Source: Escherichia coli (GTDB taxonomy: Bacteria; Pseudomonadota; Gammaproteobacteria; Enterobacterales; Enterobacteriaceae). Taken from it: DNA of 64,000 bases. A program made the position numbers and the translations under genes. Below, piece by piece: positions 12,692 to 46,049 of this stretch. Within the stretch, counting starts at the first letter, position 1. Each line of letters opens with the position of its first letter. The stretch lies in the NCBI RefSeq assembly GCF_003334315.1, contig NZ_QOWR01000009.1. One strand, written 5' to 3'. Below the pieces are notes generated by a model. It did no database searches. It worked only from the letters and a program-made list of their open reading frames with translations, and was not told the origin of the DNA.

Positions 12692-12756
12692 TCGTTCGTT
12701 GGAACACGATGTTGCACAGGCTGTGGTGTTAGGCCTGAAAATAGTAAATAAAAGAA

Positions 12757-12781
12757 CCTGCCTCACCAGCAGGTTTTTTTA
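12757..12781 (+). terminator. Intrinsic terminator in yehK-yehL intergenic region
   Basis: Stem cctgc / gcagg with loop ctcacca (12757-12773) followed by 8 T (12774-12781). Confidence 0.5.
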
Positions 12782-40139: not shown

Positions 40140-42135
<1,996 letters not shown>

Positions 42136-43567: not shown

Positions 43568-44796
43568 CGAAAGATCTTTCGATTACTTTTTGCGGCGTGA
43601 AGTTTCCCAACCCGTTCTGCCTCTCTTCTTCGCCGGTAGGCAACTGCTATGAGATGTGTGCCAAAGCCTACGACACAGGTTGGGGCGGTGTGGTGTTTAA
43701 AACGATCGGCTTTTTTATCGCCAACGAAGTCTCGCCGCGTTTTGATCATCTGGTGAAAGAAGATACCGGTTTTATCGGCTTCAAAAATATGGAGCAGATT
43801 GCTGAACATCCGTTGGAAGAGAATCTGGCCGCCCTGCGTCGGCTGAAGGAAGATTACCCGGACAAAGTATTGATCGCTTCGATCATGGGGGAAAATGAGC
43901 AGCAATGGGAGGAGCTGGCGCGCCTGGTGCAAGAAGCTGGCGCGGATATGATCGAGTGTAACTTCTCCTGTCCGCAAATGACTTCTCATGCGATGGGTAG
44001 CGATGTCGGGCAAAGCCCGGAGCTGGTAGAAAAATATTGTCGGGCAGTGAAACGGGGTTCCACGCTGCCAATGCTGGCGAAGATGACGCCGAATATCGGT
44101 GATATGTGCGAAGTGGCGCTGGCGGCGAAGCGCGGCGGCGCAGATGGCATTGCGGCGATTAACACCGTTAAATCCATCACCAATATCGATCTTAATCAGA
44201 AAATCGGTATGCCGATCGTTAACGGAAAATCGAGTATTTCCGGATATTCCGGTAAAGCGGTAAAACCGATCGCCCTGCGCTTCATTCAGCAAATGCGCAC
44301 CCATCCAGAACTGCGCGATTTCCCAATCAGCGGTATCGGCGGCATTGAAACCTGGGAGGATGCGGCTGAGTTTTTATTGCTCGGCGCAGCAACGTTACAG
44401 GTGACCACCGGCATCATGCAGTACGGGTATCGGATAGTGGAAGATATGGCAAGCGGGTTGTCGCATTATCTCGCCGATCAGGGATTTGATTCGCTGCAGG
44501 AGATGGTAGGTCTGGCGAATAACAATATTGTCCCGGCGGAAGATTTAGACCGCAGTTATATTGTCTATCCCCGTATCAATCTTGATAAATGTGTTGGCTG
44601 TGGACGCTGTTATATTTCCTGTTACGACGGCGGTCACCAGGCGATGGAATGGAGCGAGAAAACCCGCACACCGCATTGTAATACCGAGAAATGTGTGGGT
44701 TGTCTGCTTTGTGGTCACGTCTGCCCGGTGGGTTGTATTGAGCTCGGGGAAGTGAAGTTTAAGAAAGGCGAGAAAGAACACCCGGTAACGTTGTAA
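43561..44796 (+). CDS. preA: NAD-dependent dihydropyrimidine dehydrogenase subunit PreA (411 aa)
   Basis: ORF trimmed to ATG at 43561 ([10 protein letters not shown]...); C-terminal 4Fe-4S ferredoxin motifs CVGCGRC, CVGCLLC. Confidence 0.92.
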
Positions 44797-44805
44797 AACC
44801 AGAGA

Positions 44806-44985
44806 CGCATCCGGCATTTGGTTCCTGTCGCCGGATGCGGCTTGAACGCCTTATCCGGCCTACAAAACCATACAAATCAGTATGTTGAGCTTATTGTAGG
44901 CCGGATAAAACGCGCCAGCGTTGCATCCGGCATTTGGCTCCTGTTGCCGGATGCGGCGTGAACGCCTTATCCGGCCTACAAAACC
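44806..44985. repeat. BIME (cluster of REP units, two ~65-bp direct copies plus inverted copy)
   Basis: gcatccggcatttgg(t/c)tcctgt(c/t)gccggatgcggc(t/g)tgaacgccttatccggcctacaaaacc occurs twice (44806-44870, 44921-44985) with an inverted REP between. Confidence 0.75.
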
Positions 44986-45038
44986 ACACAGATCATGATG
45001 TTATGTGCGTTTATGACCGAATGCGGACCACATTCACA

Positions 45039-46049
45039 TCATTTCTTACGCGCGTATTTCAGTGAATCCAGCGCTACGGCGAAGATAATAATCGCCCCTT
45101 TGATGATATACTGCCAGTATGGGTTTACGCCGATATACGTCAGGCCATAGTTGATGACGGTAAAAATAATTACCCCGGTCACCACGCCAATCACCGTCCC
45201 CACACCGCCGCTGAACGATACACCGCCTACCACGCACGCCGCGATAGCATCCAGCTCATACATAAAGCCGAGGTTGTTGGTGGCAGAGCCGATACGTCCG
45301 GCTTCTAACATCCCGCCAAAGGCATAGAACACGCCAGACAACGCGTAGATCATCAGCAGGTTCAGGCCGACGTTGACACCAGATACTTTTGCCGCTTCCG
45401 GGTTACCGCCAATGGCAAAAATGTTCTTACCGAAGCGGGTTTTGTTCCACAACACCCAGACGAACGCCACCGCAATCAACGCGTAGAAGGTGATGTAAGA
45501 GAGACGGAAACTCCCCAGCGCGACAAAGCCCTGAGCAAAGGTAGAGAAGCCACTGTCAAAACCAGAAATTGGCGACGCCCCGACAAAGTCGTAATAGAGC
45601 GAGTTGATGCCATAGACGATGATCATCGTGCCGAGCGTGGTAATGAACGGCGTCACGTTGAGATAAGCGATAATCAGACCGTTGATCAAACCGATCACCG
45701 CACCAATGGCACAGACAATCAGAATAACCAGCGCAATCGGCATCGTCGCCATTTCCGGGAACACTTTGTTGGCGTTATCCATGGACTGCAATAATGTCGC
45801 AGCCACCACTGCCGCCAGCCCTACCTGACGACCAGCAGAAAGATCGGTCCCCTGGGTGACAATTAACCCTGCCACACCGAGCGCGATAATAATACGCACC
45901 GATGACTGGGTGAGAATATTACTTAAGTTCAACAGACTTAAAAATGTTGGGTCCTGGAAAATAATAATCGCCAGCAAAACTAAAAGAACGACGTAAATAC
46001 CGCCCTCTTTCAGGTAAGTAAGAAAACTTTTCTTATTTAACGCACTCAT
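45039..46049 (-). CDS. mglC: Galactose/methyl-galactoside ABC transporter permease MglC (336 aa)
   Basis: ORF track 45039..46049 (-). Confidence 0.95.
   Translation of the reverse strand: MSALNKKSFLTYLKEGGIYVVLLVLLAIIIFQDPTFLSLLNLSNILTQSSVRIIIALGVAGLIVTQGTDLSAGRQVGLAAVVAATLLQSMDNANKVFPEMATMPIALVILIVCAIGAVIGLINGLIIAYLNVTPFITTLGTMIIVYGINSLYYDFVGASPISGFDSGFSTFAQGFVALGSFRLSYITFYALIAVAFVWVLWNKTRFGKNIFAIGGNPEAAKVSGVNVGLNLLMIYALSGVFYAFGGMLEAGRIGSATNNLGFMYELDAIAACVVGGVSFSGGVGTVIGVVTGVIIFTVINYGLTYIGVNPYWQYIIKGAIIIFAVALDSLKYARKK

Follow-up and report, generated by a model that had tools for sequence, protein, structure and literature searches.

The Escherichia coli genes preA and mglC, which belong to the preTA and mglBAC (galactose-transporter) operons, are convergent and separated by a gap of 242 nt in the window, the whole 64,000-nt stretch of DNA that was analysed, and this gap is filled by an array of repeats. 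The window is K-12-like E. coli: the region showed 100% identity to one E. coli genome and 99.8% to K-12 BW25113, positions 44780–45060 were identical to BW25113, and 5,426 of 5,426 complete E. coli genomes gave a match to the region. MG1655 coordinates are obtained by adding 2,191,704 to the window coordinates. The array is REP156 of E. coli K-12 MG1655 (NC_000913.3), which is listed as 'Convergent' between preA and mglC at MG1655 2236535–2236684 (Harris et al., supplementary table, bioRxiv 10.64898/2026.03.23.713779), corresponding to 44831–44980 of the window. Locus, flanking genes and spacer sequence agree with the catalogued element without any substantive difference; neither this individual locus nor its class is therefore new. 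The initial annotation, made from the sequence alone, had placed a BIME between convergent preA and mglC, and this was borne out by the catalogue entry as well as by matches to the y REP consensus and to the Rfam model RF02564. The entry comprises only the three intact REPs, omitting an eroded z2 stub on the preA side and a decayed third unit on the mglC side. The RefSeq copy of NC_000913.3 carries no REP annotation, not even for REP325, so the missing annotation at preA/mglC is uninformative.

Anatomy of the repeat array

The y-type REPs were identified with a 34-nt consensus, GCCGGATGCGGCGTGAACGCCTTATCCGGCCTAC, for which 0.00 matches were expected in shuffled sequences. Agreement with this consensus came from three sides: the Rfam model in its y half, the REP325 copies, and REP185 in a published table. 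From preA to mglC, the junction contains the following features:

44794–44796, plus strand: stop codon of preA, flanking the array
44797–44816, plus strand: stub, an internally deleted z2-type REP that abuts the preA stop and in which only the tail GCATCCGGCA (44807–44816) is intact
44806–44839: stub hairpin, a 10-bp stem (44806–44815 with 44830–44839) closing a 14-nt loop and starting 9 nt past the preA stop
44817–44828: S linker 1, TTTGGTTCCTGT, tail-to-tail and of BIME-2 type, aligning to the naRNA4 model linker within a partial match at 44797–44860
44830–44863, minus strand (GTAG on minus): REP1, y type, one mismatch to the consensus
44864–44895: 32-nt head-to-head linker, related to the BIME-1 L motif but diverged from it and specific to this locus
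44875–44887, plus strand: exact match to the IHF core consensus, AATCAGTATGTTG (WATCARNNNNTTR), a candidate site
44896–44932, plus strand (GTAG on plus): REP2, z2-like, with a z2 upper stem and a lower stem made y-like by compensatory changes
44933–44945: S linker 2, TTTGGCTCCTGTT, aligning to the naRNA4 model linker
44946–44979, minus strand (GTAG on minus): REP3, y type, no mismatch to the consensus, hairpin of about −21 kcal/mol
44899–44976, minus strand: two-hairpin module of y, S and z2, matching RF02564 over its full length and sense to mglC transcription
44980–45038: decayed second linker (L′), followed by what remains of a third z2 REP after the deletion of most of it, reaching the mglC stop
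45039–45041, minus strand: stop codon of mglC, flanking the array

A repeat search returned a single family of direct repeats, 44799–44886 and 44915–45002 (88 nt, 89% identity, 116 nt from start to start). Scanning the offsets from 110 to 121 gave 78 of 88 matches at 116 and at most 26 of 88 elsewhere; the repeat is confirmed as real and not a product of chance. The two nearly identical units of the initial annotation thus stood, but the second of them, given as 44921–44985, was one base out of register: 44806–44870 matched it at only 19 of 65 positions (offset 115), compared with 61 of 65 for 44922–44986. The proposal had depended on the units matching the REP consensus, and upon alignment each contained a y REP, with one mismatch in the first and none in the second. 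Similarity between the units extended past the REPs, with 26 of 31 positions identical across the stub and S linker and 19 of 23 in the linker that follows the REP. An inverted REP between the units had also been described. A REP of opposite orientation was indeed found at 44896–44932, but its last ∼18 nt already form the start of unit 2.

Read from preA to mglC, the order is z2 stub, S linker, y REP, 32-nt linker, z2-like REP, S linker, y REP, decayed linker and eroded z2. A 280-nt allele from the Escherichia genome L009 contains five nearly intact REPs and is collinear with the window, where the first and the last z2 copy have, by comparison, suffered internal deletions. The stub, for example, is collinear with a fuller z2 copy in that allele and departs from it by deletions. 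Likewise, alignment of the right flank to the last L009 linker, z2 and flank scored 17.5 against a null of −7.8 ± 3.4, a score reached by none of 1000 shuffles. Collinearity with L009 together with these deletions indicates that the true repeat unit is 116 nt long (z2, S, y, linker) and present in ∼2.5 copies. The '∼65-bp units' proposed at first therefore captured the existence of direct repeats but under-described a longer tandem unit whose copies are partly eroded. The stub lacks GTAG and is therefore not a REP. Two small plus-strand open reading frames inside the array (44818–44961 and 44934–45065) were set aside because they are composed of repeat sequence.

The RNA of the whole spacer folded better than shuffled sequences on both strands (z = −6.8 and −8.3). 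Predicted hairpin energies were −20.0 (plus) and −19.4 kcal/mol (minus) for the stub hairpin, about −20 kcal/mol on either strand for REP1, which has an internal 2-base bubble, and −21.2 and −20.5 kcal/mol on the two strands for REP2, which the z2 half of the Rfam model accommodates through compensated pairs. The 3′ arm of the stub hairpin is also the 5′ arm of REP1, and the two hairpins are therefore mutually exclusive.

Class membership and the comparison with REP325

REPs are dispersed, extragenic palindromes of 30–40 nt that fold into a hairpin with a two-base mismatch in the stem and carry a conserved GTAG 5′ of the stem foot (for the latter, Ton-Hoang 2012). REP1–REP3 measure 34–37 nt with −19.7 to −21.3 kcal/mol on either strand; CTAC at 44860–44863 and 44976–44979 (GTAG on the minus strand) and GTAG at 44896–44899 on the plus strand supply the motif, and a two-base bubble was present in the folds of all three and in the Rfam consensus structure. 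The array lies between the preA and mglC stop codons, the region matched a median of at least 38 places per genome, and further y copies were found in the window at 27920 and 41032.

BIME-1 elements consist of z1 and y in single copy plus a long, conserved L linker in which an IHF site is often found, BIME-2 elements of tandem copies of z2 and y that have a short S linker, and atypical BIMEs are multi-copy chimeras in which BIME-1 and BIME-2 motifs are mixed (Ton-Hoang et al. 2012). REP156 shares with BIME-2 the inverse orientation of y and z2, seen in the full-length match of 44899–44976 to the y + z2 model, the short S linkers (12–13 nt) and the tandem arrangement (116-nt unit, 78 of 88 positions identical). 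The single-copy z1 + y arrangement of BIME-1 was not seen at the array. As in BIME-1 (RIP/RIB), a linker of ∼30 nt connects a y REP head-to-head with another REP. Unlike in the y–L–z1 order of BIME-1, the partner is z2-like, the unit is repeated in tandem, and the linker is single-copy and diverged, for which reasons plain BIME-1 was rejected. A typical BIME-2 of the REP325 type was rejected as well, owing to the different head-to-head linker. With y and z2-like REPs, an S linker, an L-like linker and ∼2.5 units, the best label for REP156 is atypical BIME.

The comparison with REP325, the BIME-2 between yjdM and yjdN that is the source of naRNA4, illustrates both sides of this assignment. Both arrays alternate y and z2 REPs, use a tail-to-tail S linker, are repeated in tandem, match RF02564 over its full length and are tied to an RNA 3′ end and to Rho-dependent termination. 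However, the period is 116 nt here and 100 nt in REP325, and the head-to-head linkers are unrelated (32 nt, L-like and with an IHF core here; 17 nt, AAATTCCCGCACCCTCC, in REP325). The z2 copy of REP156 has a y-like lower stem, unlike that of REP325, there are 2.5 eroded units instead of six, and the array separates convergent genes whereas REP325 lies inside an operon.

The match of 44899–44976 (minus strand) to RF02564 (naRNA4) scored 88.3 bits against a gathering score of 59.5, covered model positions 1–77 of 77 and was the sole one in the window, so that in sequence and structure the module qualifies as naRNA4 in Rfam. Its plus strand reached 55.1 bits, and the six REP325 type copies 95–111 bits. 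RF02564 is in effect a model of one y–S–z2 unit of REP325.

The 32-nt linker was found in 2824 of 5426 genomes at a median of one place per genome, compared with at least 35 places in every genome for the canonical BIME-1 y–L junction. Aligned to the reverse complement of canonical L, it nevertheless agreed in 21 of 26 columns, a score equalled by just 5 of 5000 shuffles; the canonical L motif itself was absent from the 64-kb window. Of six Escherichia spacers from outside E. coli, five kept the IHF core consensus within the linker, and substitutions in it were confined to N or R positions. Since the core occurred 14 times in the window (4.5 expected), it is weak as stand-alone evidence, and IHF may bind at 44875–44887, as judged from the sequence match. 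The initial annotation had also named the binding of gyrase and IHF, which is a general property of BIMEs and may hold for this array. This bears on a possible role at the DNA level, in which a gyrase-binding BIME with an IHF-bent linker would relieve positive supercoiling between the convergent operons. Such a role would fit the two y REPs, the IHF core consensus, found in an L-like linker and conserved across Escherichia species, and the literature, in which gyrase cleavage sites are over-represented in BIME-2 elements and preferentially in their y REPs. However, the same literature assigns gyrase binding to only a subset of BIME-2 elements, our literature search found no gyrase-site or IHF-ChIP data for the locus, and the flanking genes are absent from the gyrase Topo-seq supplements. 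Together with how common the IHF core is and with the almost half of strains that have no array (see below), this leads us to regard the gyrase/IHF role as quite unlikely.

RNA 3′ ends and Rho-dependent termination at the junction

The initial annotation had suggested term-seq as a check, and published data provided two minus-strand 3′ ends at or beyond the array, along with evidence for Rho on both strands:

44826 (MG1655 2236530), minus strand: the dominant 3′ end that mgl-sense RNA has in vivo, 4 nt beyond the REP1 hairpin base on its 3′ side
44656, minus strand: second mgl-sense 3′ end, antisense inside preA (Adams et al. 2021)
Peak at 44324, minus strand: Rho termination region, antisense inside preA (Adams et al. 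2021), with a Rho score of 7.46 (p = 3e-13) that is calculated over 800-nt windows and does not resolve the termination point relative to the array
44760–44828 (MG1655 2236464–2236532), plus strand: weak in vitro Rho-utilisation peak P_N10_2270 (H-SELEX), sense to the preA 3′ end

The minus-strand end at 2236530 is supported by an average of 51,513 Term-seq reads (Adams et al. 2021 eLife, PMC7815308, Supplementary file 1). Its published 61-mer maps exactly to the window, with the 3′-end base at position 51. We took the condition to be LB at an OD600 of 0.4, because a neighbouring mglC-internal end has the same read count in the LB 0.4 table. An end at 44826 gives mglC a 3′ UTR of 213 nt that includes the whole array and carries the naRNA4-like module in sense; the mgl-sense RNA thus traverses REP3, REP2 and the linker before it ends. 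That 44826 falls in the loop of the stub hairpin implies that REP1 and not the stub hairpin was formed in that RNA. At the Rho region, the ratio of downstream to upstream coverage was 12/322 in untreated cells and 72/259 with bicyclomycin, and Rho-dependent control of read-through is shown to act across or beyond the array. On the preA side, the Term-seq tables of Adams et al. 2021 list no preA-sense 3′ end. P_N10_2270, which lies 3 nt from REP156, has a log10 fold enrichment of 0.32 for a cut-off of 0.3 (table in the bioRxiv 10.64898/2026.03.23.713779 supplement, adapted from Delaleau et al. PNAS 2022).

With regard to intrinsic termination, we found no convincing site in the spacer and no hairpin with the A-tract and U-tract of a bidirectional terminator; the scan gave one unconvincing match (minus strand, 44932–44913, inside REP2; 1.4 expected). 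No promoter emerged from a scan of the spacer. REP156 is also absent from the 78 REPs located inside SEnd-seq bidirectional terminators, in a table that spans these coordinates. Of the functions first assigned to the array, all of them reasonable by textbook knowledge, defining or stabilising the upstream mRNA end is supported on the mgl strand by the dominant Term-seq end just past REP1. Another, a terminator or insulator between the operons, held in part: there is an mgl-sense end at 44826, but the RNA crosses two REPs before reaching it, a further end and a Rho region follow antisense in preA, REP156 is missing from the SEnd-seq table, and the spacer has no U-tract terminator.

The same data weigh on the idea that the array is a Rho-independent bidirectional terminator, its REP hairpins stopping polymerase from both operons and 44826 being the true termination point. 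Coverage dropped 3.6-fold across the region despite bicyclomycin, 78 other REPs do lie inside experimentally defined bidirectional terminators between convergent genes, and the orthologous site in Citrobacter is a bidirectional intrinsic terminator (see below). Nevertheless, no hairpin here is followed by a U-tract, the scan's one match inside REP2 is unconvincing, the mgl-sense RNA passes REP3 and REP2, more 3′ ends and Rho-dependent read-through lie downstream, and REP156 is missing from the bidirectional-terminator table. We therefore consider Rho-independent termination unlikely.

Instead, the mgl 3′ end at REP1 and the Rho region beyond it suggest that the array serves less as an insulator than as the element that sets, and probably protects, the 3′ end of mglBAC. 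Our preferred reading, which we hold to be probable, is that REP156 is a BIME of ∼2.5 units whose REP1 hairpin fixes and protects the mglBAC 3′ end after a Rho-dependent stop and trimming. Polymerase leaving mglC would mostly be stopped by Rho at or beyond the array, and 3′-to-5′ exonucleases, by which Rho-terminated transcripts are typically processed (Adams et al. 2021, PMC7815308), would next shorten the RNA until they meet a stable REP hairpin, the first of these being REP1. This hairpin would fix and protect the 3′ end of the mglBAC message and limit antisense transcription into preA. On the plus strand, purely as we infer, the same hairpins might act likewise on preTA RNA arriving from the other side. 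The preA-side in vitro Rut peak is barely above its cut-off, which counts against the plus-strand part of the mechanism. The role proposed here matches the dual behaviour of REP325, which experiments have shown to terminate transcription partly through Rho and also to stabilise mRNA. Genome-wide, half-lives were reported not to be lengthened by terminal REPs.

Two further readings concern the RNAs that contain these hairpins. The stub hairpin could stall ribosomes terminating on preA and thereby lower PreA synthesis, in analogy to an effect reported in the literature for REPs at most 15 nt from a stop codon (Liang et al.). The position is suitable, with a −20 kcal/mol hairpin starting at 44806 and a stop codon ending at 44796. 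However, the stub does not count as a canonical REP, and 33 nt separate the stop from the start of the nearest full one (34 by its catalogued start at 44831). Moreover, the 3′ arm of the stub hairpin is also claimed by REP1, and the minus-strand end at 44826 implies the REP1 form in that RNA. We thus rate ribosome stalling as very unlikely. Still less probable, in our judgement, is that the y + z2 module constitutes a second naRNA4-type gene, from which a two-hairpin RNA would be cut out of the mglC 3′ UTR to bind HU and condense the nucleoid. The module does match RF02564 over its full length and above the gathering score, it is sense to mglC transcription, and it falls within the mgl-sense RNA ending at 44826. 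Yet RF02564 in effect profiles a pair of y and z2 REPs, the opposite strand reaches 55 bits as well, and a 2026 study found REP325/naRNA4 to have no measurable effect on nucleoid compaction and to act locally as a 3′ UTR element.

Allelic variation and related junctions

Copy number at preA/mglC among strains, which the initial annotation had proposed to compare, revealed three main spacer lengths in E. coli, in addition to expansions:

242-nt spacer: array as in the window; linker in 2824 of 5426 genomes (52%), full span in 20 of 20 sampled rows
126-nt spacer, M7638 type: exactly one unit, resembling unit 1 on the left and unit 2 on the right; ∼52 genomes (1%)
70-nt spacer, 2014C-3057 type: GCATCCGGCA-N12-TGCCGGATGC followed by AGC-GCATCCGGCA, no full REP; ∼47% of genomes, 18 of 18 sampled rows

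The 126-nt allele corresponds to one chimeric unit and is 116 nt shorter, a pattern expected from recombination between direct repeats. The linker was found at 14 extra places, some genomes having two or three copies, and the 280-nt L009 allele has one more intact REP and linker, so expansions occur too. The number of tandem BIMEs has been reported to vary among strains. At this locus, unit number would shift through recombination or slippage between the 116-nt repeats, possibly with the involvement of the REP-associated transposase. Because no full REP is present in ∼47% of complete E. coli genomes, which keep only the small hairpin, the array is dispensable. The stub hairpin is the only element common to all E. 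coli alleles examined, its alignment columns being invariant.

Outside E. coli, a REP mosaic occupied the preA/mglC junction in E. albertii, E. whittamii and the cryptic clades alike, with differing unit contents. A REP-type hairpin was present at the junction in every Escherichia allele examined. A Citrobacter-type spacer of 56–61 nt was found at 13 loci (12 Citrobacter genomes and one MAG labelled Raoultella) and contains a textbook bidirectional intrinsic terminator, ACAAAAAAGCCCGGTGCAG...CTGCACCGGGCTTTTTG. REP156 resembles this terminator in its position, in the convergent genes at its sides and in offering GC-rich hairpins usable from both strands. However, Citrobacter has a single hairpin with an A-tract and a T-tract, whereas Escherichia has dispersed repeats and no U-tracts. 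From the terminator at the orthologous junction, it follows that the REP array occupies the position of a bidirectional terminator.

Variation of this kind could also mean that the array is selfish or neutral repeated DNA, seeded and remodelled by the REP-associated transposase and recombination and serving no selected function, and that the 3′ end at REP1 is what any stable hairpin would incidentally produce. Presence and absence are near 50/50 among the 5,426 genomes, the terminal units are eroded, unit number varies between Escherichia species, and TnpA-REP cleaves and recombines BIMEs in vitro according to the literature. Against this, all Escherichia alleles examined have kept a REP-type hairpin where Citrobacter keeps its terminator, and the IHF-like core changes only at degenerate positions. 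We consider a selfish or neutral origin of the pattern possible, if somewhat unlikely, as a full account. It is compatible with our best explanation and does not exclude it; the same compatibility with the main reading, REP1 as the determinant of the mglBAC 3′ end, applies to several of the alternatives above.

Overall, REP156 is an ordinary catalogued cluster, belonging to a class that has been studied for forty years, and is of little import beyond housekeeping. The modest by-products of the analysis are the precise anatomy of an atypical BIME, made up of 2.5 units of 116 nt that are eroded and include an L-like linker, the assignment of a published RNA 3′ end to one specific hairpin, the bidirectional terminator at the orthologous Citrobacter junction, and the nearly even split of E. 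coli between strains with the array and strains with none. A bolder and rather doubtful possibility is that the near 50/50 polymorphism between the three-REP array and the bare hairpin serves as a natural 3′ UTR 'dial', the long allele equipping mglBAC with a structured 3′ UTR of 213 nt that includes a putative naRNA4-like, HU-binding module and an IHF-bent linker. If so, long-allele and short-allele strains would differ in how stable the mgl mRNA is, in how much antisense RNA reads through into preA and in supercoiling around the locus, which would amount to heritable differences in expression without any change in coding sequence or promoter. Since this polymorphism occurs in nature, the locus lends itself to testing the current question of whether REPs serve as terminators, stabilisers or both.

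The preA/mglC junction in other genera

The spacer between the convergent preA and mglC genes was compared among numbered related loci. At the Citrobacter-type junction (12 genomes of Citrobacter spp. and one MAG labelled Raoultella), a 56-61 nt spacer carries a conserved bidirectional intrinsic terminator, consisting of an A-tract, a GC hairpin and a T-tract, where Escherichia has the REP array.

Positions about 2098-2158 of L015-L021 and L023-L027: Citrobacter-type terminator

In four loci from Pseudocitrobacter and Kluyvera (L028, L029, L030 and L032), preA and mglC are separated by an extra insert of ∼500 nt (about 2098-2700), the size of a small ORF, which apparently encodes a membrane protein; after it comes a terminator hairpin in some of these loci and REPs in others. 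A canonical z1-L-y BIME-1 was found in one member of this Pseudocitrobacter/Kluyvera group, L030. A further PreA relative, L022, comes from a record titled Aeromonas finlandensis, on a contig with no mglC downstream of the PreA C-terminus. This C-terminus shares 91% identity with its E. coli counterpart, an unexpectedly high value for Aeromonas that could reflect horizontal transfer or contamination.

The short E. coli allele

Within E. coli, the short allele of the junction (L003 and L006; about 448-517) has at its end a perfect palindrome, TGCCGGATGC-AGC-GCATCCGGCA. This palindrome resembles the hairpins catalogued as REP11, REP21 and REP187 among experimentally detected bidirectional terminators, and it may represent a collapsed REP pair.

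REP copies and IHF cores across the window

Two further y-type REPs were located elsewhere in the window:

27920-27953, + strand: y-type REP, two mismatches to the y consensus
41032-41065, + strand: y-type REP, three mismatches to the y consensus

Across the whole window there are 14 occurrences of the IHF core consensus WATCARNNNNTTR. Shuffling gives an expectation of 4.5 ± 2.1, and no shuffle contained as many as 14.

RNA elements in the window

Two further Rfam matches and one published sRNA candidate fall within the window:

12705-12780, + strand: OrzO-P antitoxin RNA family (RF02083), full-length match, 99.9 bits
33170-33250, − strand: Peptidase-S11 RNA motif (RF03039), 72.8 bits
45556 (MG1655 2237260), − strand: 3′ terminus of 'mglC int', an sRNA candidate internal to the mglC ORF, from published Term-seq

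The OrzO-P match has a promoter-like TTGCAA...TATAAT on its upstream side and is accompanied by a strong intrinsic terminator. MG1655 carries an identical sequence at 2204409, between yehK and yehL, where the RefSeq copy used has no annotation. The Peptidase-S11 match, directly upstream of pbpG (DD-endopeptidase), falls within the 5′ leader of this gene in MG1655, which is the context expected for the family. For 'mglC int', a promoter of its own, expression in LB and chimeras with ArcZ in Hfq RIL-seq have been reported.
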